Shown one piece after another: positions 1,435-51,985 of a stretch of 64,000 nucleotides of DNA. The position numbers and the translations under genes were made by a program. The number at the start of each line of letters is the position of its first letter. Position 1 is the stretch's first letter. The stretch is from NCBI RefSeq assembly GCF_053078305.1, contig NZ_CP166879.1. One strand, written 5' to 3'. A model generated the notes under the pieces. The model saw only the letters and a program-made list of their open reading frames with translations, had not been told where the DNA came from and did no database searches.

Positions 1435-1859
1435 ATCGCACGTCTCTCCTCCTTGCGACACCGGCAGGACACCGGGCGCACATGGTCGGCAAGCGACGTC
1501 CCTGTAGCAAGGCAAACCATCGCTTCACGTGAGATGCTGAAAACGAAAGCTCATCCTTCTGCACTGGCGCACGTCGCCAGAAAGTAATGTTAATAAAGCG
1601 TAGTGAAACTTTTGCACAAAACAATACAAACTGTGTGGATTTATCTTTTAGCGATAAAAATGGACCTATTTTTCTTTTTGCCGGGCGGTGGGATGTTTAG
1701 CCTGTTGCTAAACGAGTAAAAGAGAAGGAATTCATGGTGATGAAATGATCAATCTGCTGTTATTTCACGCTATCAATGCACTTTTGGCTGTTTTTCAGGC
1801 AAACAAACAAATTAGGGGTTTACACGCCGCATCGGGATGTTTATAGTGCGCGTCATTCC

Positions 1860-1947
1860 GGAAGTGTGGCCGAGCGGTTGAAGGCACCGGTCTTGAAAAC
1901 CGGCGACCCGAAAGGGTTCCAGAGTTCGAATCTCTGCGCTTCCGCCA
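1860..1947 (+). tRNA. serT: tRNA-Ser (anticodon UGA), intact; 3' 60 nt is the attL core
   Basis: GGAAGTGTGGCCGAGCGGTTGAAGG...CGCTTCCGCCA, long variable arm, anticodon loop cTTGAAAa. Confidence 0.9.
1888..1947 (+). repeat. attL core: 60-bp direct repeat, identical to 51881-51940
   Basis: Exact 60-nt match read directly in sequence; mismatch immediately upstream (1887 c vs 51880 t). Confidence 0.85.
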
Positions 1948-1953
1948 AACAAT

Positions 1954-1987
1954 CAAGGGGTTACCAAATGGTAGCCCCTTTCCTTTT
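1954..1987 (+). terminator. Rho-independent terminator after serT (prophage-side copy)
   Basis: Hairpin aggggttacc/ggtagcccct followed by T-tract. Confidence 0.6.
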
Positions 1988-2087
1988 TTTGCTCTTAGTA
2001 TACACTTGGTATACTAATTGGTATATTTAGCTCAATACACACTAGGTACATTGTTCTCTTTACGATTTATCGCTATACCGATGAATT

Positions 2088-2417
2088 ATGAATAACCCCA
2101 ATCCATGCATGACGTGTGGTGCCTGTTGTGCATTTTTCCGCGTCTCTTTTTACTGGGCAGAAGCTGACGATGCTGGCGGAAAGGTTCCGGTCAGTCTCAC
2201 TGAGCAAATATCCCCCTTTCATCGCTGTATGCGCGGCACCAGTCAGAAAAATCCCCGATGTGTCGCTCTGGCGGGAACTCCGGGTAAAAACGCATATTGC
2301 TCTGTTTACAAAAACCGTCCGTCCACGTGCCGGGAATTCGCAATGTCCGGAGAAAATGGCATCGCAAATGAAGCATGCAACCGCGCCCGGGCAAAATACG
2401 GACTTCCGGAAATCTGA
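2088..2417 (+). CDS. YkgJ-like Cys-rich protein (UPF0153, putative Fe-S or zinc binding); moron at prophage left end
   Basis: [31 protein letters not shown]... CxxCxxCC motif; opposite strand to tail genes; hairpin terminator at ~2540-2565. Confidence 0.55.
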
Positions 2418-2580
2418 AAAATCATCCATATCAACAGGATGCACGAAAAATGAGAGTTCCATCACTTCCGGAATTAACTTTTCCGTGGCACTATTTACTC
2501 GGCATAGTGTATATCTTCACAATAATGACATAATCAACGCAGTTCATGGGGGAGGTGATGGTCCCCCATCTTTTTGTCTG

Positions 2581-3252
2581 TTATTCCTGTGCCCAGCCAA
2601 CCCTGTATGCCAGGATCTCATCCGCACTGCTCAGCGATTCCAGGTCCTTCTTCATGGTGCGCTGGCGAATGTGGATTTCCATCCCTTTGGTGAACATCGC
2701 CTGCTCTGCCGCTTCACTCAGCGCAATAAGCTCTTCTGCTGTCACCGGCACATCATTGTTTTCCGCATCCGTCCAGAAAAACGCCTCCGGCAGTTTCCCC
2801 GATTTCGCTGCCGCCACCGACGGCTCAAGACGCGTCTGCGTTGACTTCCCGTAGTCCCATTTACGCCCATTGTGCTCAAACGTGTAGTTCGCCGCTTCCA
2901 TCGCATTACGCCAGGCGTTAATTTCATCGCCCTTCATCCCTCGCGCTTTCTCCGCGGTCAGCAGGTCCGTGATTTTCTCCCCGTCAAAACCCCAGCGCCC
3001 CGAGATGTCAGCTTTGCGGTTTTCTTCCGTATCCGCCACCTCCACCACACTCTGGCCCACTGGCCACAGAACTGATGCCACCCTGCTGATGCCGGTAATG
3101 ACTCCGGCACTGTTATAAACCACCTTCAGCGTCTCTGCTGAAAATAACGACTGACACTCATACCAGTCCTGACCATCCTCTGATTTCAGGTACATCGCAC
3201 CCGGCACATCCGGATTTTCCGGCGTGTATTGTCTGAAATTCTTTATGTGCAT
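2581..3252 (-). CDS. tfa: Tail fiber assembly protein (Tfa-like)
   Basis: Position immediately downstream of side tail fiber; size and composition typical of lambdoid Tfa. Confidence 0.65.
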   Translation of the reverse strand: MHIKNFRQYTPENPDVPGAMYLKSEDGQDWYECQSLFSAETLKVVYNSAGVITGISRVASVLWPVGQSVVEVADTEENRKADISGRWGFDGEKITDLLTAEKARGMKGDEINAWRNAMEAANYTFEHNGRKWDYGKSTQTRLEPSVAAAKSGKLPEAFFWTDAENNDVPVTAEELIALSEAAEQAMFTKGMEIHIRQRTMKKDLESLSSADEILAYRVGWAQE

Positions 3253-3293
3253 CTGTAAGTCCTCCCGGTTACATGTCTGAAAGATGATGCGCT

Positions 3294-5012
3294 TTATAAT
3301 GGAAAATACTCAAACCCCGAAGCTCCTGACGACACATACTCACCCACGCTGACTGTACGCCACTGAGAACCATCAAATGTCACCTGAAGCGGCCTGTAAG
3401 AAACCGATATCACACCATCTGCTCCTCTACTTTTCAGACCAGTAATCACAGCTCCTATACTCAGGCTTATTGACAGAAAACCAGAGCTCTCTTCTGCTCT
3501 GTAAGTCTGTTCATTACCCAGCCTGATACCCACAACCCGGCTCTTCCCGTCTGATGCCCCGGGCGGCCCCATCGGCCCGGTTTCTCCACGCTCACCTCTG
3601 GGACCGGGGTCGCCTTTCTCCCCTTTCGGTCCCTGCGCTCCCCGCGGACCAGCGGGGCCTGTTGCTCCCGTTTCACCTTTCGGACCCTGTGCTCCGGGGT
3701 CACCTTTCTCTCCTTTCGGACCGGGAACACCACCTCCTGCTGCAGCCTCTTCTGCCTTTGTTTTCGCTTCATTTGCCACATCCATTGCCGCCTTCACGGC
3801 CTTCGGCGTGGCTGCCTTTGTTTCGTCATTACTGCCAGTATCACTGCTTAACTGCACCACACCTTTCTGCGTCGTGCTGGCATCCCGCTGGCTGACCGTA
3901 TCCGGTTTGTTTTTTGTGCTGTAATCCACCCGCCAGTGGAAATACCGTGTGTCGCCGTAAACCGTACAGGTACAGACCGTGCCATTAATAAACCCCGTTG
4001 CACCGTATTCGCCAATGGTGACCCGGACTATGGCAGCCTCATACGTTCCCATCACCTCAATGACACAGCCACCCAGATTGAGTTTTCCCGGTCCGACATC
4101 CGTGATGACTTTATTCATTGACGCAAGCAGTGATGCCTTCATCATCCAGTAAGGCTGGTCAAATGCCCCTTTTTCTTTCAGCCAGGCAACAAACTCGCGT
4201 GTTTTCCATTCACCGGCCCCCGTATGAATGTCCCGCCCGTATACTCTGGCTGCTCCCACGGTGTTCAGAAACTTCACCTTATCCGGGATATCATCACCGT
4301 TTTTCGCTTTCTCCAGGCATCCGTCCGCTTTGTCCATTGCCGCTTTCACCGCTTTCGGCGTGGCTGCCTTCGTTTCATCATCACTGTCCGTTGCGCTGCT
4401 TAACTGCACAATTCCCTTCTGTGCCGTCGTCGCATCCGGCCCTCCCGGCTCGCCTTTTTCGCCCTTCTCTCCCCGTTCACCTTTCACACCCTGAAGCCCC
4501 TGTGGTCCTGTCTCACCACGCTCACCCTTTGGCCCCCGCTCGCCGGTATCGCCTTTTGGCCCGGGAATACCCTGCGGCCCGGTGTCCCCCTTATCCCCCT
4601 TCGGTCCCCGCGCATTCTCTGCCCGTTTCTTCGCTTCCTCTGCACTCGCCGCTGACGCTTCCGCACGTTTCAGGATTTCCGCTGCCACCGCTTCCAGCTC
4701 TGCAAGGGCTTTCGGGTAATACTGTGCGTCTTCCAGGTCCATCAGAAATTTATTCAGCGTTCCCGGTGCAGAATCCGCCTTCACCAGAATGTCACCCACA
4801 TATGACGGCGCGTACCCTTCCGTGTTCAGCGTCACCCGGTACAACCCCGGCTCAACATCCATACTGTAACTGCCGGTTTCCCCCGGCTGACCATACGCCA
4901 CCGTGGTGACAATCACCATCTCCGTTGTGCGGCGCGCTTTCAGCTCTATCGTGCATCCCGGTACTGGTTTTCCCGTACCATCCTTCAGCACACCCGATAT
5001 TCTGACTGTCAT
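3294..5012 (-). CDS. stf: Side tail fiber protein with collagen-like G-x-x repeats
   Basis: Two blocks of [13 protein letters not shown]... repeats; conserved [10 protein letters not shown] motif twice; follows J. Confidence 0.75.
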
Positions 5013-5154: not shown

Positions 5155-5295
5155 TTACTGCTTACACTGTAAGAACGCCGCAATCTCCGCGCCCGCTATC
5201 CGGAACCGGAACTCGCACAGTGAACTGTGGGTGATCCAGATAATGAGCACTACCGTGATACAAATCACGGTGGTTTTTAACGGTTTTTGCGACAT
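5155..5295 (-). CDS. hok: Hok/Gef-family type I toxin (46 aa), not in ORF track
   Basis: Own translation: MSQKPLKTTVICITVVLIIWITHSSLCEFRFRIAGAEIAAFLQCKQ; TM helix plus LCE-R-R...AAF signature; AAGGAG RBS 9 nt upstream. Confidence 0.6.
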   Translation of the reverse strand: MSQKPLKTTVICITVVLIIWITHSSLCEFRFRIAGAEIAAFLQCKQ

Positions 5296-5493: not shown

Positions 5494-8400
5494 TCAACTG
5501 ATGCCGATCCCCGCCGTGGATTTTTTCATGACCACAACCAGTAAATCACTGATGTATGTTGTCGGCGTCCAGTGGTTCACCCCGTTCGACCACACATTAA
5601 ACGTCAGGGTCACATGACCCCGTCCTGCTGGCATATCAATGACGGACGAAAACACCCGGGTGACATCCGTTGCCGGCTGATGAAAAATTACCCTTCCGTT
5701 CATCTGCACCTGTAACTGACACGTGGAATACCATGTTGAAGTGTGATCTTTGCTGGACTGGTGCTCATGTCTCGCCCCCCGGAACAGCACCGGTGGAATG
5801 ATAATCTGCCGGTCGAAGCCCTGGTCATCGTAAACCGTGACGGTTATCGTGCCACTGGCATAACTGTTATTCCGGGGAAAGGCTTTCCCCACCGTCTTCA
5901 CCAGATCGCCTTCAATCTGGTTCGCAGACAGTTTCCCTCTGATGACACAGTTCTCGTTAATGGTGACATTATTGAGCGTGCCGCTATTCGCTGTGACAGC
6001 TCCACTGATGTCCGCATTGCGGGCCGTCAGCCTGCCCTCCGGCGTCAGGGAGAACGTCGGGGGATTGCCGGACGAGGTGATGCTCACTGCAAACAGTCGC
6101 TTCAGGAACACATCGTTCATGAACAGCTGATTCCCCTGCGCCACAAACAGCGGCGTGGTGTTGCCGTTCTCCGGGTTAATCATCGCGATACGGTCCGCCT
6201 GCAGCAGAATATTGCTCAGGGGCTGGCCATCAGCATCCTCAATCCCCGCACCTATACCGGCAACATACGGAATGCCGTTTTTCGTTTTCTGCACCTTCAG
6301 CATATACAGCGCAGCCAGGTCGTTATTTGTGTCTGTCTGCACCCGCTGTATCTGCTGTATGGTGGCACTCTGGTCTTCCAGGGTTTTACTGACCGTCTGC
6401 GTGATTTCATTGCGGGTTTCGGTGATGGTGGTCTTCATCTCCGCCATCTCATCGTCAAGCTGGCTGTTATCAATCAGCTCCCACATCCCCTGTGCCAGAT
6501 GTGTCTTCCCGATTTCTCCTCTGAAAAAGTCCAGATACCCTTCCGCATCATTGCTCGCCCGGCCACTGGCTTCCACAAACGCAGATTTCCCCACCAGGTT
6601 GACGCTGCGCACATAAAACCAGAAATCCTTCCCCGGCTTGATGTGCGGGCCGGAGACGCTCCACTGGCTGCCTGTCCCCAGATAACGGGCAGAGGTTTCC
6701 ACCTGAGATGTGTCTGCGATTTTTGCCTCCGAGAACCAGAACTCAAACTGTACCGTCGGGTCATACACCGCCAGCACCGGTACTGCTGTTATCTGATAAT
6801 ACCCCGGCGTCAGCTCAATGCTGGCCGGTGCTGCAGGCGCATTAATCCGGAACGCGGTGGTGGCAGGTTCGCCCTGCTGGCCGTAGCTGTTTATCGCCCT
6901 GACCGTCAGGGTGTATTCCCCCAGAGGCAGGCCACTGAAACGGTGCTCCGTGTCGGCAGTGATGGCGGTGGTCACCAGGCGGCTGTTTTCACCGTTTCCG
7001 CTGGTCAGGCGCAGACTGAAGCGCACGCCCTTCACCACCCGCGGCGTGTCCCATTTCGCCAGCGCCAGATACTGGCCGTCTGAGGCACTCACCTCCACCG
7101 TGAGGTGCTGCACTGCCGGCGGGATAACGCTGTTCAGTGAACCGGACAGCGGCTCAAAGCGAGCCCCGTTATCCACAATGGCTTCTTTTTCCGGTACGTG
7201 CTGCACTGCCGTGATGGCAAAAGTGCCGTCCGTGTTTTCCCGGATGGAAACACAGCGGAACAGGCGACGACGCAGTGACGGCAGGGAGAGTCCCCACACA
7301 CCGTATGTCTCCACGCCATCCGGCAGGGCGCTGACCTGTATCCGGTCCGGCGCGGGGTGTGCAGTGATGTCCACGCGCACCGGCTTACCGCTGCCGTTAA
7401 TCAGGTTCACCGTCGATGTCCCTGCTTCCGGCAGTGTCACCTCACGGTCCAGCGTCAGTGTGCGGCTGGCGGCATCAATGGACAGGATGCGTCCGCCGGT
7501 CAGGGTCCCGGCATAGTCGTTATCACAGATTTCAATGATGTCACCGGGCGTATGCCGCAGCCCCTGTGACCCGAGCGTGAAATCCACCGTCTGCGTTTCC
7601 AGCAGTTCGGTCTTTATCACCCACAGTCCGGCACGGTGGGCCTGACCGCGGCTGGTACAGCCAAACGCATCCATCTTCAGCAGGTTGCGTCCGTAGCGCA
7701 GGATGGCGTCCGGGTCTTCCACCAGTTCCGTGGAGGTCTGCCAGCCGTTCTGCGGGTCGGTGTAATTCACCTCCACCGCCGTGTGCCGGTCCTTCAGGGC
7801 ACTGAAGCTGTAGCGGAACCCCACGCCGTTATCATCCACCACCACATCGCTGTTGGTGTACGGCCACACCACATCCGACGGACGGTCCTGAACGAACGTC
7901 AGCGTCTGGCCGTTCCATACCGGCATACAGCGCATCGCCGAGCAGAAATCCCCCAGGACATCCCACACCTTACGCTGCTGTGACAGGTACGCATTGAAAG
8001 TCATCCGCGGCTCTGTTCCCCCGAAACCATCCGGGACCGTCTGGTCGCAGTACTGCCCGATGGCATACAGTGCCCACTTGTCCACATCCGCGGCCCCCAG
8101 GCGTTTTCCCATGCCGTAGCGCGGGTGGGTCAGCATGTCCCACAGGCACCAGGCCGGGTTATTGCTGTATGCCGGTTTCAGACTCCCGTCCCAGATACCG
8201 CTGTAGGTGCGTTTTTCCGGGTCATAGTTTGACGGCACCTGAATGATGCGACCACGGATATGGTAGTTCACCGTCAGCTGCTGGCCACCAAACTGCTCCG
8301 CATCCACCTGCAGCCCCACAATGGCCGTGTTCGGGTAGCACTGTTTCACATCGATGATTTCGGTGTATGACGACCACAGCGTTCTGTTCTGCAGCTGGTC

Positions 8401-8970
8401 CGTGGTGCTGTCCGCCGTCTCCCTGACCATCCGGATGTTAAAGGGGCGCTCAGGGAGATTATTCAGAATCACAGACGTCAGGTACTGCGAGGTGGTCTTG
8501 CCGTTAATGGTGATATCCTTCTCCGTCACCCAGTGCCCGTTACGCTCAAGCTGAATCAGCAGGCGGACAGAAGAGGGATTACGGTCACCCTTTGAGGTGG
8601 TCTCCACCAGTGACTGCACCCCGAAGGTGACCCGCAGACGGTCAATGTTCGCTGACGTGATGGTGCGCGTCACCGGCTTTGCCTTCGTCACCTCCACGCC
8701 CAGTGCGGTTTCTGCCCCGGAGGACTCAAAGCCTTCCGGCGGTGTCTGCTCCTGCTCCCCGGCGCGCCAGACGGCGGTCACACCGTGTATCACGGGATTA
8801 CCGTCCGTGTCCGTCAGCGGGGTTTTGTTCACCAGAATACTCTGCAGTCCCTTCACCGGACCTTCCACCGGTCCCTCACCAATGGCATCAATCACGCTCA
8901 TCATCTGCGTGGATTTGAGATTGTCCTTCGCCTCACGCGGTGTGTGCCCCTTGCCGCCCCCTTTACCCAC
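5494..8970 (-). CDS. J: Tail tip / host specificity protein J; likely GTG start at 8970 (track ORF extends to 9021)
   Basis: (V)[21 protein letters not shown]... collinear with lambda J throughout; AGGAGA RBS before GTG. Confidence 0.9.
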
Positions 8971-9211
8971 TCTGCCCCCCTCTCCTGTCTGATGTCTGAA
9001 TCTGTTTATGCCCAAAAACAACAGGCACCCCGGAGGGTGCCTGTGTCATGACGGAATAAAATTTCTGAAATTCTTCACATTTCCGGCAATTGCCTGTAGC
9101 CGCAATAATGACGCTGCGTTACTTTTTTGATGCCTGAAAAATAACTCCATAAAGTTAATCTTCATCGTTCTCTCCCGCAGCTCCACTAACTCTGCGGGAT
9201 TTTTTTTATTT

Positions 9212-32789: not shown

Positions 32790-33725
32790 TTAACGTATGT
32801 GCACACAACCTGAACCGGCATCAAAAAACAAACCGTGCACTGACAGAAAACGGGAAACCTCCGTCCGCTGATCATCACTCATTAAGGACCACACAAAGGC
32901 GTTATGCTCATCTTCAAGTTTCCGTCTTCTTGTTTGCCTTACAAGCAACTCAGCCGTCACCTGTACAATGTCAATGACCACCTTCTCTTCAGCAATGTAC
33001 GGCCTGTTCCAGTTCTCTGTGTTAATCTTCTCCGTCACCGGCGCTGACTTTTTGCAAGTTTCCCCATTAAACCCGACGCCATAAACAACAACATCATCGC
33101 TTTGCTTTTCGTTATCAATAATGACGAATAATACAGAAACCGATGTATCAGCGAACCCGCCTGAAATCTGAACCAACTCAACAACGCGGTTGCCAAAATA
33201 CTGACGCATTGCCAGCTCACCACGCCTGTAACCAACCCCGGGAAAGCACAAAAAAAATGAAAATCTTGCCTTCATACTCGCCAGAACATAAAACGCGTCA
33301 TCCAGAACACCGGAGGTCTTTTTATAAGGCATCATCGCTGAAATCTTCTCCCTGATATCCGCGCTCTGTGCTTTGTACTGTAGCGAAAAAGGCGGATTCA
33401 TGATGACACAATCGAACGTGTCCGTGTCACTGACATCATCTATGGCGTTGAAGAAATTTTCATTGACCGTCTTCACTGTGGCATCCGGAAAGTTATCCGG
33501 GATATGCAACAACGGAGAGGCCTGTATATCCACAGCATACAGACTTCCCACCGTGAGAAACTGCTCCAGTTGCCCGGAGCCACACGCACCATCAAAAATA
33601 CTCAGGGGCAGATCACCACAATATTCCCGCACTTTTTCAGCGACAAACCGACGCAAAGGAACGGACGTGATGTACTCTGCGTATTTTCTGGCGACTTCGC
33701 GATTATTGGATTCCTGAAAAACCAT
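32790..33725 (-). CDS. Putative N6-adenine DNA methyltransferase, gamma-class-like (motif I before NPPF)
   Basis: IFDGACGSGQL (SAM-binding) then VIMNPPF; 311 aa, too small for a separate target-recognition domain; lies at stx-equivalent locus. Confidence 0.6.
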   Translation of the reverse strand: MVFQESNNREVARKYAEYITSVPLRRFVAEKVREYCGDLPLSIFDGACGSGQLEQFLTVGSLYAVDIQASPLLHIPDNFPDATVKTVNENFFNAIDDVSDTDTFDCVIMNPPFSLQYKAQSADIREKISAMMPYKKTSGVLDDAFYVLASMKARFSFFLCFPGVGYRRGELAMRQYFGNRVVELVQISGGFADTSVSVLFVIIDNEKQSDDVVVYGVGFNGETCKKSAPVTEKINTENWNRPYIAEEKVVIDIVQVTAELLVRQTRRRKLEDEHNAFVWSLMSDDQRTEVSRFLSVHGLFFDAGSGCVHIR

Positions 33726-33810
33726 TTGTGAAAGGCTCTGTGGTTGATATGCGCCGGGCGTGGCACGGAGACAAAAAAGGCCCGCAAAAGCGAGCCTGGG
33801 AAAATAAGTG

Positions 33811-33887
33811 TGGCGCGTTGTACTGGATTCGAACCAGTGACCGATTGCTTAGAAGGCAATTGCTCTGTCCGACTGAGCTAACAACGC
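33811..33887 (-). tRNA. argO: tRNA-Arg (anticodon UCU), argO-like
   Basis: Cloverleaf folded by hand: acceptor GCGTTGT/ACAACGC, anticodon loop CTTCTAA, T-loop GGTTCGAATCC, CCA end. Confidence 0.75.
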
Positions 33888-33900
33888 ATGATGCTGATAA

Positions 33901-33977
33901 TGGACCGCCATCGGGGACTTGAACCCCGCGCAGCCAGCTTCGAAGGCTGGCGCTCTGTCCCGATGAGCTAATGGCGG
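33901..33977 (-). tRNA. argN: tRNA-Arg (anticodon UCG as read), argN-like
   Basis: Acceptor CCGCCAT/ATGGCGG, anticodon loop CTTCGAA, T-arm CGGGGTTCAAGTCCCCG. Confidence 0.65.
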
Positions 33978-33986
33978 TATGTGATA

Positions 33987-34062
33987 TGGTGGCCCTTGCT
34001 GGATTTGAACCAGCGACCTGGCGATTATGAGTCGCTCGCTCTCACCACTGAGCTAAAGGGCC
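33987..34062 (-). tRNA. ileZ: tRNA with CAU anticodon, ileX-like (tRNA-Ile2 via lysidine, or Met)
   Basis: GGCCCTTTAGCTCAGTGGTGAGAGC...CTCATAA...GGTTCAAATCC...CCA; close to E. coli ileX. Confidence 0.75.
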
Positions 34063-34102
34063 GGGTGCAGGATAATAACGGTACGTAACTAATCCTGCAA
34101 TA

Positions 34103-35161
34103 TCATCCGTTCTGACTGGCTAAATCCTGAACTTCCCTGACCGTCTGCTCAAAACGTTCAGTCTCCAGCTCAACGCCAGTTGCACGACGCCCCAGCGCCA
34201 TCGCGGCTTTGACTGTCGAACCCGACCCCATGAAAAAATCTGCAACCAGGTCCCCCGGACGACTGCTCGCGCTGATTATCTGCTGCAGCATTTCTGCCGG
34301 TTTTTCGCACGGATGTTTCCCGGGATAGTACTGCACCGGTTTATGCGTCCACACATCCGTGTACGGCACCTGCGCCGTCACACCGAAATACCGCCGCAGA
34401 TGCTTATATTCACTCTGCAGTTCCGCATACTGCCGGTTCAGTGAAGTATATGTCTCCAGCAGCTGGTGGTGGGGCTTTTCCAGTTCACCCCGCTGATGCT
34501 TCTCTTCTGCCACCCGGGCAAACAGCGCCTGTAATTTCAGATAATCACTTTCGTTCGGCAGCTGCCACTGACTGGCACTGAACCAGTGCGACACCATGTT
34601 TTTCTTTCCTGTGGCATCCACTATCTGTTTTGCCGTTATCCCCAGGGCAGCGCGCGCATCACGAAAGTAAGCAATCAGCGGGGCCATCACATGCTGTTTC
34701 AGTGCCCTGCCCTTCGCCTCATACCCGGCATCTTTCGGACGATACGGCCCCTGATAATGTTCCGCGAACAGAATGCGCTCTGTGGCGGGGAAATACGCCC
34801 GCAGGCTTTCCTTGTTGCACCCGTTCCAGCGTCCGGACGGCTTTGCCCAGATGATATGGTTCAGCACACTGAAGCGTTCACGCATCATGATTTCAATGTC
34901 AGACGCCAGGCGATGACCACAGAACAGGTAAAGACTTCCGGCAGGTTTCAGCACCCGCCAGAACTGCGCCAGACACTGGTCCAGCCACTTCAGGTAATCA
35001 TCGTCGCCCTTCCACTGGTTATCCCAGCCCTCGGGCTTCACTTTAAAGTATGGCGGGTCTGTGACTATCAGATCGACAGAGTTTTCCGGTAAGGTCTGGA
35101 TAAATTCCAGGCAATCAGCGTTGATTAACTCACAACTGGATATTTTTACAGTATTAAGCAT
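34103..35161 (-). CDS. DNA methyltransferase, beta-class (DPPY ... FxGxG), 352 aa
   Basis: DLIVTDPPYF near N-terminus; DFFMGSGSTV near C-terminus. Confidence 0.75.
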   Translation of the reverse strand: MLNTVKISSCELINADCLEFIQTLPENSVDLIVTDPPYFKVKPEGWDNQWKGDDDYLKWLDQCLAQFWRVLKPAGSLYLFCGHRLASDIEIMMRERFSVLNHIIWAKPSGRWNGCNKESLRAYFPATERILFAEHYQGPYRPKDAGYEAKGRALKQHVMAPLIAYFRDARAALGITAKQIVDATGKKNMVSHWFSASQWQLPNESDYLKLQALFARVAEEKHQRGELEKPHHQLLETYTSLNRQYAELQSEYKHLRRYFGVTAQVPYTDVWTHKPVQYYPGKHPCEKPAEMLQQIISASSRPGDLVADFFMGSGSTVKAAMALGRRATGVELETERFEQTVREVQDLASQNG

Positions 35162-47994: not shown

Positions 47995-50433
47995 ATGAGC
48001 ACTGATAAAGAAGAATTTTCGCTATATTGCGAAGCAAAAAATGACAAGGTCAGAAAACGCCTTGGGATTAAAGGAGGTTTTTACTGGACTACAGCAAAAA
48101 AATTATCTGTTGCCATCTCACGGTGCGTTGTTGCAATGGACGAGGCAGGCTACGACGCTGATGATTTCAAAAAACCTGTCCGCGTCCATTTCCCCGTTGT
48201 GAATGACCTTCCACCGGAAGGCGTGTTTGATACCGAATTCTGCAACCGCTATGAAAAAGGCGGGGAAGATGGCATCACAATGATATTTATAGCGCCTTCC
48301 CCCTCAGTTCAGGACAAACCAGCCAGCACTGACAATACCAACGTCAATGGCGAAGACATGGCTGAGATTGAGGATAATATGCTCCTGCCGATTTCCGGTC
48401 AGGAACTGCCCATTCGCTGGCTTGCGCAACATGGCAGCGAAAAACCGGTAACGCACGTTTCACGGGAAGAACTTCAGGCATTACATATCGCACGAGCTGA
48501 AGAACTGCCGGCTGTTACTGCCCTGGCTATTTCCCACAACACAAAGCTGCTCGACCCGCTGGAGATTCGCGACCTTCATAAACTGGTACGCGACACAGAC
48601 AAAGTTTTCCCTAATCCCGTTAATTCCAGTCTGGGGTTAATGACTGCTTTTTTCGAAGCATACCTGGACGCTGACTATACCGATCGAGGTCTGCTGACAA
48701 AAGAGTGGATGAAAGGAAATCGTGTTTCTCGCATCACCCGCACGGCTTCCGGTGCAAATGCCGGTGGCGGAAATAAAACCGATCGTAATCCTGACTTAGT
48801 ACACACCCTCGATACTCTGGATGTGGAGGCTGCAGCAGCCACACTTCCGATGGATTTTAATATTTATGAAATACCCGTGAGCGTTTATCGTCGCGCAAAA
48901 GAAATCGTCCTGAAAAAAGAAAGTCCGTTCAGGGAATGGTCCGCAGCACTTCGCGCAACCCCTGGTATCCTGGACTATTCCCGCGCAGCTATTTTTGCAC
49001 TTATCCGGAGCGCCCACCCTGAGTTTTATCACTACCCGGGACGCCTTCAGGGGTATATCAATGCCAACCTGACAGAAACTGATCACGAGAATCCCACAGC
49101 TGAAACGCTCATGGCTGCCCGGCATACACCGGAAAAAGATATCCTGGAAGAAATTAACGGCGGACTGGCTGCTGAGTGCAAAACAGAAGAAGAAAAAAAT
49201 GATGAAGAAAACCCGCAACCATCTGGCGCAATGGCAGATGAACAGGCAACGGCTGAAACAATGGCAGCGGATACAGTTGAACATCATCAGGACCCGCAGC
49301 CGCTGGATGACAAGTCACAGGTAAAAGTTACTGCTGAAGAAGTAAATAAAATTATGGAGGCAGCAGACATCAGTCGACCAGATGCCGACAAATTGCTTGC
49401 CGCTTCTCGTGGTGAGTTTGTTGAAGGGATTAGCGACCCGAATGATTCGAAATGGGTTAAGGGGATTGAAACCTGCGATTCTGTGAACCAGAACCAGCAA
49501 GAAACGGAACAGAACGGTCAGAAAGCGGAACAAAACAGCCCAAATGCGTTACAAAACGAGCCAGAAACGAAACAACCTGAACCAGTAGTGCAACAGGAAG
49601 AGGAAAAAGTTTGTACCGCATGCAATCAGACTGGTGGTGGTAACTGCCCTGATTGTGGCGCAGTGATGGGGGACGCAACCTACCAGGAGACATTCAACGA
49701 AGAAAGCCAGGATGAAGCCCGGGAAAAAGATCCGGAGGAAATGGAAAGTGCCGGACTCCCGAACAAGGAGTGCACCGAAGGCGATCAACATGCCAATGGC
49801 AATAATGAAACAGGCGAGACAGCAAATCCCTTAATTAAGGTGAACGGTCATCGTGAAATCACATCCACCAGCAGGTTATGGCACCATCTGATGATTGACC
49901 TTGAAACAATGGGCAAAAATCCTGACGCACCAATAGCCTCAATAGGCGCTGTATTTTTCGATCCACAAACCGGAGAGCAGGGGCCTGAATTCAGCAAAAT
50001 AATTGATATGGGTACATGTGGCGGCACTGTAGACATAAGCACCATCGAATGGTGGCTTCAACGCTCTGGCGAAGCCCGTGCCGCCATTTTAGCTGATCGA
50101 ATACCGCTTGATGATGCGCTTTTACAATTACGGGAATTTATAGACGAAAACTCCGGTGAGTTTTTTGTTCAGGTCTGGGGAAATGGAGCCAACTTCGACA
50201 ACGTGATTTTACGCCGTTCATATGAACGGCAGGAGATCCCCTGCCCGTGGCGTTACACCAATGATCGTGATGTAAGAACGATTGTTGCCCTGGGGCTGGT
50301 GATGGATTTCGATGCTCGAAGTGTCATCACATTTGAGGGTGAACGCCATAATGCCCTGCACGATGCGCGTTACCAGGCAAAATACGTTTCAGCTATCTGG
50401 CAAAAACTGTTCCCGAATCAGGCTGATTTTTAA
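47995..50433 (+). CDS. Large early-left protein: RecE-like N-terminal region + acidic linker + Cys4 zinc ribbon + C-terminal DEDDh 3'-5' exonuclease domain
   Basis: C-terminus MIDLETMG ... WGNGANFDN ... [10 protein letters not shown] (Exo I-III motifs); [16 protein letters not shown]; N-terminal blocks recalled as RecE-like. Confidence 0.6.
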
Positions 50434-50499: not shown

Positions 50500-50751
50500 A
50501 TGTACGAATTAACTCTATCGCCAGCAGAAATTCAAGAGATCACGAGATACGAACGGTATACAAAACAGCAACAACAGTTAAGGTTGCACGGTATCCCATT
50601 TGTACCCGGTCCTAAAAACGAACCAATAGTTCTTCGCAGTGATGTCCCGCGCGGACTGACTGCGATACCGAAAGTATCTGAACTGGTTTCTGCTGACCCC
50701 GATTTTGAGGCGCTGAACAATGGGAAGACCAAGAAAAAACAAAAAAGATAA
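50500..50751 (+). CDS. xis: Putative excisionase
   Basis: Small basic protein immediately upstream of and overlapping int. Confidence 0.5.
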   Translation: MYELTLSPAEIQEITRYERYTKQQQQLRLHGIPFVPGPKNEPIVLRSDVPRGLTAIPKVSELVSADPDFEALNNGKTKKKQKR

Positions 50752-51739
50752 TGCACTACCGCCACGTGTTAGATCGAATGGTTACAGTTACGTATGGAAA
50801 CCCGAAGGAAGCACAAAAACTATAGGGCTAGGAAGAGTGCGGGAAACCAGCATAGCTAAAGTCTGGCAGAATTATGAACTGGAAAAAGCAAAACGCCACA
50901 ACATAATGACCGTCGCTAAATTATGGCACATGTTTATGGATTCCCCCGCATTTACAGAACTGGCCCCCAGAACCCAAAAAGATTATCGGCAACATCAGAG
51001 GGCGTTACTGGCAGTCTTCGGAAAAGTACTGGCTGATAATGTAAAAATTGAGCAGGTAAGAATTTTCATGGATAAACGGGGGATTGAGAGCAAGACCCAG
51101 GCAAACCATGAACTGGCAAGTCTCAGTCGTGTATACGGGTGGGGATATGAGCGTGGATATGTGAAGAATAACCCATGCAAAGGAGTCAGGAAATTTACGC
51201 TTAAAGCCCGCACTGTTTACATCACAGATGAACAGTATGCGGCGATATATGCGGAAGCAATACCACAGTTACGCATTGCAATGGAGATATCCTATCTTTG
51301 TGCGGCAAGACTCGGTGATGTGCTCGAGCTGAAATGGCAGGATATTATGGATAAAGGAATCTACATTGAGCAAAACAAGACCGGCACCAAACAAATCAAG
51401 GAATGGTCTCCACGATTACGAACCGCGATCCAGTTAGCCAGAAATGTATCTTCAGGCACATGTGAATATGTGATCAACACAACCAAGGGCGGGAAGGTCA
51501 TAGCTAAAACGCTAAACAACTGGTGGAACCAGGCTAAACACGCAGCCGAGAAAAAATCCGGCGTCCCGTTTGGGTGCAATTTCCATGACATAAAAGCCAA
51601 AGGAATATCAGATTACGAAGGAAGCAGTCGCGACAAACAGATTTTCAGTGGACATAAAACAGAAAATCAGGTGTTGATTTATGATCGTAAAACAAAAATC
51701 ACGCCGACACTGGATTTGCCACTTGTGGTCAGCAAGTAG
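50720..51739 (+). CDS. int: Tyrosine integrase
   Basis: 339 aa; catalytic R (AARLGDV), H-x-x-K and terminal HKTENQVLIYDRK (Tyr) motifs; adjacent to attR. Confidence 0.85.
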   Translation: MGRPRKNKKDNALPPRVRSNGYSYVWKPEGSTKTIGLGRVRETSIAKVWQNYELEKAKRHNIMTVAKLWHMFMDSPAFTELAPRTQKDYRQHQRALLAVFGKVLADNVKIEQVRIFMDKRGIESKTQANHELASLSRVYGWGYERGYVKNNPCKGVRKFTLKARTVYITDEQYAAIYAEAIPQLRIAMEISYLCAARLGDVLELKWQDIMDKGIYIEQNKTGTKQIKEWSPRLRTAIQLARNVSSGTCEYVINTTKGGKVIAKTLNNWWNQAKHAAEKKSGVPFGCNFHDIKAKGISDYEGSSRDKQIFSGHKTENQVLIYDRKTKITPTLDLPLVVSK

Positions 51740-51880
51740 GCAACTCAGGAAATTTTCTGGCAAAAAAGACTTGGTATACTAACTCTGAAAGCTCCCTAAC
51801 AGCCTGATTTTTCTAGGTGTTAAGTTTGGTTAATTTTTCAGCTATTTTTCGTATTGCATTGATTTTTATTTATTTTTCAT

Positions 51881-51940
51881 CGGTCTTGAAAACCGGCGAC
51901 CCGAAAGGGTTCCAGAGTTCGAATCTCTGCGCTTCCGCCA
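51881..51940 (+). repeat. attR core: 60-bp direct repeat (displaced serT 3' fragment)
   Basis: Identical to 1888-1947. Confidence 0.85.
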
Positions 51941-51946
51941 GATAAG

Positions 51947-51985
51947 ATAAGGGGTTAGCTAAATGCTAACCCCTTTTTCTTTTGC
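51947..51985 (+). terminator. Rho-independent terminator (likely the original serT terminator)
   Basis: aggggttagc-taaat-gctaacccct perfect hairpin + T-tract. Confidence 0.6.

Follow-up and report, generated by a model that had tools for sequence, protein, structure and literature searches.

We analysed a window of 64,000 nt (the whole stretch of DNA examined here, one strand of contig NZ_CP166879.1 from RefSeq assembly GCF_053078305.1) containing a ykgJ-like gene, which encodes a cysteine-rich protein of the CxxCxxCC type just inside the left attachment (att) end, attL, of a prophage inserted at serT. The explanation that best accounts for the whole locus, and to which we assign a probability of about 0.7, is that an intact, selectively maintained copy of ykgJ is carried there as prophage cargo, and that the short repeats upstream of it are arm-type binding sites of the phage integrase (Int). 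Under this explanation, the intact ykgJ paralogue would be the single cargo gene between attL and the tail-fibre genes; it would be transcribed inward from att, with its own terminator stopping the transcript before an antisense run into tfa, and it would give the lysogen a second dose of YkgJ activity through a predicted metal-cluster protein. The repeats, at one-helical-turn spacing, and a matching 14-mer in the other arm would bind the N-terminal domain of a lambda-like Int, and would belong to attP instead of forming a control element of ykgJ. The coordinates of all features are collected in Table 1.

Table 1. Features of the serT prophage and its att regions, in window coordinates
Feature	Position	Strand	Evidence or remark
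serT, tRNA-Ser(UGA)	1860-1947	+	ARAGORN; Rfam tRNA 57.5 bits
attL core, 60 bp, identical to attR core	1888-1947	.	exact repeat at 51881-51940
serT terminator hairpin and T-run, phage-supplied	1955-1990	+	-18.8 kcal/mol, z < -4
three direct TTrGTATAy repeats (1995, 2006, 2018), 11 and 12 bp apart; proposed arm-type Int sites, tail-side arm	1994-2026	+
sigma-70-like match TATACA-17-TATATT with upstream TG, overlapping the repeats	1999-2027	+	9/12; possible promoter only
36-nt leader homologous to the K-12 ykgJ upstream region	2052-2087	+
ykgJ-like coding sequence, 109 aa, PF03692 CxxCxxCC	2088-2417	+	Pfam, RefSeq
59-nt run identical to K-12 ykgJ (gene 79% identical overall), holding the best predicted RyhB pairing site (2106-2132)	2100-2158	+
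intrinsic terminator of the ykgJ-like transcript	2546-2575	+	8-bp G+C-rich stem 2546-2569, then CTTTTTGT; -14.5 kcal/mol
tail-fibre assembly (tfa) / DUF4376 gene, convergent with the ykgJ-like gene	2581-3252	-
tail fibre, 572-aa open reading frame	3294-5012	-
J	5494-9021	-
DUF4224 gene	50500-50751	+	excisionase (Xis)-like role from position
tyrosine integrase	50720-51739	+	lambda Int homologue from residue 1 (1z1b, E 3.6e-19, residues 1-318)
ACTTGGTATACTAA, identical to 2004-2017; proposed arm-type site, int-proximal arm	51769-51782	+	exact 14-mer match
attR core, the displaced serT 3' part, followed by the native serT terminator	51881-51940	.	exact repeat

The ykgJ-like gene as prophage cargo

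The prophage is lambdoid (lambda-like), about 50 kb long, and inserted at the 3' end of serT. On its left side the window starts in Escherichia coli chromosome, with hyaB'-hyaA on the minus strand followed by serT; in a strain with an empty site the order is serT, native terminator and yccA, and its sequence departs from that of the window directly after the tRNA. This comparison, together with the 60-bp core repeated beside int and yccA, places attL at serT and attR before yccA, the attR core lying just 3' of int and the DUF4224 gene and just 5' of yccA. On integration the phage supplies the 3' 60 nt of serT. The tail genes (J, tail fibre and tfa) are all on the minus strand and abut attL, and the ykgJ-like coding sequence, 141 nt 3' of serT and within the attL end, has its 5' end toward att and converges on tfa. 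An earlier note, made from the letters of the window alone, had described a 109-aa CxxCxxCC protein opposite to the tail genes and inside attL, and this placement holds.

The protein is identical to RefSeq WP_001367470.1, annotated as "YkgJ family cysteine cluster protein", and matches the full PF03692 model (1-85/85, E 5.7e-12, 46.6 bits against a gathering cut-off of 23 bits), with the motif C7-x2-C10-x2-C13-C14. It has the same length as the chromosomal YkgJ of K-12 and aligns with it without gaps over all 109 residues at 83% amino-acid identity. The eight cysteines that are invariant in 13 enterobacterial YkgJ proteins (C7, C10, C13, C14, C47, C58, C71 and C81) are all present, and seven of them are conserved at 90% or more across 123 diverse homologues, C47 falling under 90%. 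A model built by AlphaFold2 from the 123-sequence alignment is confident (predicted local distance difference test, pLDDT, 94; predicted template modelling score, pTM, 0.83). The 109-aa forms lack the C-terminal tail of 25-28 residues found in many orthologues; the tail is not part of the Pfam domain, and K-12 YkgJ and some Citrobacter and Salmonella proteins lack it as well. There were no matches for the protein in NCBIfam (E <= 0.1), PHROGs or PADLOC, and a BFVD search returned only weak ones (best E 0.1).

Relative to K-12 ykgJ, synonymous divergence (dS) is 1.4-1.7, which is saturated, and nonsynonymous divergence (dN) is 0.084-0.088, giving dN/dS of about 0.05-0.06. Among eight prophage copies compared, 15-16 of the 19 polymorphic sites are synonymous and 3-4 nonsynonymous. 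Judged by these substitution patterns, the gene is under strong purifying selection, both after its divergence from chromosomal ykgJ and in the prophage lineage. Since it is also full length, it is not a truncated pseudogene, one of the outcomes that the earlier note had named as refuting its proposal; with all eight cysteines kept and dN/dS near 0.05, our comparisons point the other way.

The gene also has its own hairpin terminator, as the earlier note had claimed: the stem and U-tract end 5 nt from the stop codon of tfa, and the hairpin is kept in every prophage copy examined. Since the minus strand has no U-tract, this hairpin terminates the ykgJ transcript only. We searched 5426 complete E. 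coli genomes by megablast and found the gene together with its 3' region in 85 of them; many of the best matches listed are named as Shiga toxin-producing E. coli (STEC) or as non-O157 STEC serotypes. It adjoins serT in 30 genomes, and in the further carriers inspected it lies beside potB, in prophages integrated at potB/potC. The two settings are alike in that the gene is terminal, with its 5' end toward att and co-oriented with the flanking host gene, and homology between the serT and potB/potC types begins at the ATG or at most 7 nt upstream. Since the serT int/att module itself occurs in 741 of the 5426 genomes, cargo and integration module are independent; in a different prophage at serT, EspK occupies the position of ykgJ. 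The label of terminal moron given by the earlier note therefore stands as far as it means dispensable cargo with its own terminator that is present or absent between related prophages. However, the gene is not distinct in base composition from the surrounding phage DNA (G+C 0.521 versus 0.525 for the prophage), and a promoter of its own is not established.

A somewhat unlikely alternative is that the gene is a passive hitchhiker, that is, host DNA picked up by aberrant excision, of no use to phage or lysogen and heading for decay. Intact copies are absent from the deposited E. coli phage genomes, where 53 records hold N- or C-terminal fragments only, including H0002 of VT1-Sakai and two remnants in PPompW; most prophages with the common int/att module lack the gene, and there is no PHROG family for it. 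These facts would suit a hitchhiker, but the low dN/dS against K-12, the excess of synonymous over nonsynonymous polymorphism among prophage copies, the retention of all invariant cysteines, the conservation of the terminator and 3' region, and the maintenance of the gene across two att types all argue against it. As for individual remnants, the Stx1a phage Stx1a_10012 (Stx, Shiga toxin) retains the first 66 nt of the gene, followed by open reading frames (ORFs) that look NleG-effector-like by eye (locus L009, 1-340). PPompW of strain 12E129 has two separate decayed ykgJ segments among effector genes (locus L012, 40751-40913 and 43350-43524), so that ykgJ remnants recur within a single exchangeable effector locus.

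The repeats and signals upstream of the gene

The repeats noticed earlier upstream of the gene are confirmed: there are three copies, TTAGTATAC at 1995, TTGGTATAC at 2006 and TTGGTATAT at 2018, and Tandem Repeats Finder reported an array at 1994-2025 with period 11-12 and 2.8 copies. Counted over the whole window, the 9-mer is not above chance (14 occurrences versus 8.2 +/- 3.1 expected); the repeats are meaningful because they are clustered and because an exact 14-mer, ACTTGGTATACTAA, recurs in the opposite att arm, in the stretch that separates the stop codon of int from the attR core. Int/att modules that are just ~90% identical keep the block AAAAAGACTTGGTATACTA unchanged. The triple array is kept in the EspK prophage at serT, which lacks ykgJ and whose similarity to the window stops directly after the array, and it is missing from the potB/potC prophages that carry ykgJ. 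The alignment of the integrase with lambda Int takes in the N-terminal arm-binding domain; Pfam reported the catalytic domain only. Since the repeats travel with the serT int/att module and not with ykgJ, since the 14-mer lies in the int arm, and since Int is of the lambda type, we read the TTGGTATAC-type repeats as candidate arm-type Int sites, which is most likely what they are, and not as a ykgJ operator. The earlier note had mentioned Int arm sites as an alternative, and this alternative turns out to be the better reading.

It is unlikely that the repeats are instead operators or promoter elements of the ykgJ-like gene, for example for a dimeric regulator. They do overlap the sole promoter-like match, including the extended -10 element TGgTATATT, and the unit read from 2004-2017 is a near-palindrome. 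However, a serT prophage without ykgJ has the repeats, prophages of the potB/potC type have ykgJ without repeats upstream, the opposite arm has the identical 14-mer next to int, unchanged in diverged modules, and the Int has a lambda-type arm-binding domain. With the repeats as Int sites, the overlapping TGgTATATT would act as a promoter only incidentally, if at all, and could be covered by Int.

A promoter of the gene itself is not established, the sigma-70-like match being only a candidate: our scan of the upstream region found three sites versus 1.6 expected, and no promoter-like site was found upstream of ykgJ in potB/potC-type prophages or in K-12. By eye (no tool scan was made), there is no LexA-box-like CTG-N10-CAG in 1950-2090. 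In potB/potC-type prophages the gene lies 164 bp 3' of potB on the same strand (locus L004, 3836-4001). A scan starting inside potB (L004, 3700) found no terminator-like site between potB and the ykgJ-like gene, and all that it showed in this gap is a perfect, A+T-rich hairpin of 14 bp that lacks a U-tract. In these prophages, transcription of the pot operon may continue into the ykgJ-like gene.

Biochemistry and relation to chromosomal ykgJ

By analogy with studied proteins, prophage YkgJ probably coordinates metal in one or two Cys4 centres, with oxygen-sensitive iron-sulphur (Fe-S) centres the likeliest kind. The earlier note had suggested a metal-dependent regulator or a redox protein; metal dependence agrees with the family membership and the eight invariant cysteines, but the regulator part is without support. 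In FliB, the Salmonella flagellin lysine methyltransferase, a CX4CX3CC motif binds an oxygen-sensitive [4Fe-4S] cluster, and the authors, who describe eight conserved cysteines, liken the motif to PF03692 (PMC8598068). E. coli YkgJ has been called a homologue of phage DpdM (DUF3109), for which two metal sites are predicted and dPreQ1 methyltransferase activity has been validated (PMC10516641). Both proteins resemble YkgJ in having an N-terminal Cys motif that ends in CC, and FliB and YkgJ have about eight conserved cysteines each. However, the spacing differs, being CX2CX2CC in the window protein, CX4CX3CC in FliB and CX3CX2CC in DpdM, and YkgJ is much shorter than either. At E <= 0.01 in Pfam, DUF3109 was not found and PF03692 was the only match, for the window protein and for 121 of the 123 homologues. 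Since there is also no NCBIfam match (whether that library contains a FliB model was left unchecked), prophage YkgJ is not filed with FliB or DpdM.

It is improbable that prophage YkgJ is a minimal Fe-S-dependent methyltransferase of the FliB/DpdM type, acting in the lysogen on a macromolecule of the host or the phage, such as a surface protein or a nucleic acid. FliB and DpdM, the studied proteins with a related Cys motif, are indeed both methyltransferases, and a YkgJ fold without a solved relative fits the 'unique fold' stated for DpdM. However, YkgJ consists of the ~85-residue core domain only, without the ~120-300 further residues present in DpdM and FliB, neither NCBIfam nor DUF3109 matches it at the thresholds given, and no substrate or partner gene is linked to the ykgJ-like gene.

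Lists of predicted and validated RyhB targets include chromosomal ykgJ (PMC4666370, PMC8534726), as would be expected for a dispensable iron protein, and loss of ykgJ in K-12 leads to filamentation in biofilms (PMC8743551). A windowed duplex search against the RyhB core placed the best pairing at +19..+45, over the CxxCxxCC codons (-22.2 kcal/mol), and the phage copy has the same sequence there. K-12 alone has a further predicted site, proximal to the leader, which the phage copy lacks owing to differences between the two copies in codons 2-4 and in the leader at -18..-1. Folding of full-length RyhB duplexes against 120-nt targets gave meaningless long duplexes that were no better than shuffles.

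The chromosomal gene of K-12 (b0288, WP_001303809.1) lies between ecpE and yagU, unlike the prophage copy beside att. The two share the 109-aa length, the eight cysteines, the 36-nt leader and the 59-nt identical block, but only the window copy has a terminator, a search downstream of K-12 ykgJ having found none. A neighbour-joining tree groups the phage copies in a clade that is sister to that of E. coli ykgJ and separate from other Enterobacteriaceae, and the dS of ~1.5 indicates that the split between the prophage and K-12 copies is old. The 59-nt identical run covers codons 5-24 and has a naive probability of about 7e-7; in other genera the stretch 2100-2158 has 8-10 synonymous changes. 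This identity suggests either gene conversion between prophage and chromosome or a constraint at the nucleotide level specific to E. coli. The run is long enough for RecA-mediated recombination between the prophage and chromosomal loci.

The upstream region of ykgJ is a documented lambdoid att site, and att sequences derived from ykgJ/ecpE are found in prophages; according to Nakamura et al. 2021, the ykgJ/ecpE intergenic region is the source of attB-in-PP_2, a secondary attachment site of 96 bp carried by prophages (PMC8112680). The orientation of the prophage gene, with its 5' end toward att and int beyond, is the geometry that would be expected if a prophage in the ecpE-ykgJ att site had been excised aberrantly, in the manner of lambda gal, and the phage ykgJ lineage probably exchanged with the chromosome by such excision. 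By BLAST of K-12 against VT1-Sakai and PPompW, we reproduced the published homology of 309 bp at 84% in VT1-Sakai, and we placed the 96-bp att at -164..-69 of K-12 ykgJ, a 29+96+184-bp layout that rests on matching the segment lengths in the paper. The window keeps only -36..+317 of the K-12 ykgJ homologous region. We therefore rejected the idea that the window contains attB-in-PP_2, since its homology starts at -36.

In E. albertii, Salmonella and another member of the Enterobacteriaceae, an intact 134-137-aa gene of the YkgJ family lies between ompW and yciC (loci L017, L018 and L019, 1501-1914). The corresponding region of E. coli (locus L022, 1038-1175) holds decayed pieces, codons ~76-89 and 106-134, annotated by RefSeq as a partial YkgJ family protein. 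Since this copy has decayed, the working ykgJ of E. coli, at ecpE-yagU, is a relocated paralogue with the prophage copies as its closest relatives. We also considered that the phage gene might correspond exactly to a segment excised from ompW-yciC of E. coli, as the BLAST end-points looked complementary, and rejected this because the remnant also keeps codons ~76-89. A comparison of the K-12 ykgJ upstream region with the ompW-ykgJ intergenic regions of other genera, made to test for co-capture of an ompW-like att, showed no similarity beyond about -12.

A joint reading of these results would make prophage YkgJ a minimal CxxCxxCC Fe-S enzyme (FliB/DpdM-like) modifying a lysogen macromolecule in STEC, and chromosomal ykgJ a phage-delivered replacement of the decayed ompW-yciC copy, with the copies still exchanging sequence and both controlled by RyhB. 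Ongoing exchange would explain the 59-nt identical block; we nevertheless regard the combination as quite unlikely. It is very improbable that the locus matters as DNA, as a landing pad (attB-in-PP_2) for a second phage, a role that the ykgJ/ecpE-derived 96-bp att sequences do have in other prophages, since that att, as placed, lies outside the retained region.

Several observations weigh against an intact, maintained cargo gene flanked by Int arm sites. The promoter match is weak, with no counterpart common to the serT-type and potB/potC-type contexts; the AGGTGA of orthologues, which resembles a Shine-Dalgarno sequence, is weakened to CGATGA in the window leader; and read-through from serT into the gene should be low, since the phage-supplied serT terminator is strong. 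Many phages have truncated ykgJ remnants only, so that the gene is easily lost. On the side of the repeats, the unit is nearly palindromic (TTGGTATACTAA), an uncommon form for arm-type sites that would also fit a DNA-binding protein acting as a dimer, and the int-proximal arm holds one copy only. Finally, given the missing NCBIfam and DUF3109 matches, the analogy with FliB and DpdM holds at the level of the Cys motif or superfamily only.

Other features of the prophage and comparison with known systems

The native serT terminator (51950-51985; -21.2 kcal/mol, z < -4) folds equally well as the phage-supplied one. The two differ at paired stem positions, GGGGTTACC...GGTAGCCCC in the phage versus GGGGTTAGC...GCTAACCCC in the native version, and as the changes are paired the stem is retained. 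Since the phage brings its own terminator, the integrated serT terminates in phage-derived sequence. An Rfam scan of 1500-3300 matched the tRNA only. From its position only, the DUF4224 gene may have a Xis-like role. The layout of the prophage is like that of Stx phages, with tRNA-Met, tRNA-Arg and tRNA-Arg (33811-34062, minus strand) downstream of a 352-aa DNA-methyltransferase-like ORF (region 32790-35161); stx genes are absent, and a 311-aa ORF with an NPPF motif, N6-adenine methyltransferase-like, is in the stx position. The tail-fibre ORF contains two collagen-like Gly-X-Y tracts, each followed by the near-repeat TTQKG(I/V)VQLSS, an internal duplication; in strain FHI_NMBU_10, RefSeq gives two partial pseudogenes for this region. 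A 46-aa Hok/Gef-like ORF (5155-5295, minus strand) lies between J and the tail-fibre gene, and its counterpart in related prophages (loci L001, L004, L005 and L007) carries the annotation of a Hok/Gef family protein. The prophage of FHI_NMBU_10 (locus L013) is the best database match, being 100% identical over window positions 1750-2650. With yccA at 48577 in equivalent coordinates versus 52147, it is shorter by about 3.5 kb, and it has no annotated tRNAs at the corresponding place; the window therefore stems from a related but different prophage or strain.

No study of the copy carried by prophages came up in our literature search on ykgJ and the YkgJ family. The literature does already describe YkgJ-like remnants at the corresponding place in Stx phages, and the arrangement, although real, is ordinary and largely anticipated. 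Alone it is of little weight; what it adds is that the cargo slot beside att, at the tail-distal end of STEC lambdoid prophages, where most Stx phages have ykgJ remnants only, can hold an intact, maintained copy of a conserved host gene of predicted Fe-S type. No structure has been solved for the YkgJ family, and the only relatives that have been studied are methyltransferases of an unusual kind. The chromosomal and prophage copies, 83% identical and with different leaders, form a natural pair for assigning the function of YkgJ.

The attB-in-PP_2 and other ykgJ/ecpE-derived sequences of STEC prophages (PMC8112680) and the gene in the window have a common source in the ykgJ locus, either of E. 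coli itself or of a near relative, and are alike in lying at the tail-distal, effector-exchange end of lambdoid prophages; in the window, however, the 96-bp att is absent and an intact coding sequence is found instead. In VT1-Sakai (Sp15), H0002, described as "similar to E. coli K12 YkgJ", has the same position and orientation as the window gene, between att and the tail-fibre genes, but is a truncated remnant of 66 aa with about 65% identity across residues 4-34. Of the ecpE-ykgJ intergenic region, 193 bp are retained with it, including attB-in-PP_2 as placed above. According to its depositors, H0002 lies downstream of the dinI-like H0001 and shares a putative SOS-box promoter with it, whereas the window gene is intact, has no dinI and shows no CTG-N10-CAG box by eye.

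In lambda attP, the arm-type sites P1, P2 and P'1-P'3, with the sequence C/AAGTCACTAT, are bound by the N-terminal domain of Int. The window resembles this system in having short direct repeats in both arms around the core and three tandem copies about one helical turn apart in one arm (cf. P'1-P'3), and the two integrases are homologous over their full length. However, the site sequence differs, the window having TTGGTATAC, a near-palindromic unit, and the arm with the triple array is the one distal to int, the reverse of lambda. TTGGTATAy is the probable arm-type site of a serT-specific lambda-like integrase that is found in about 14% of complete E. coli genomes.

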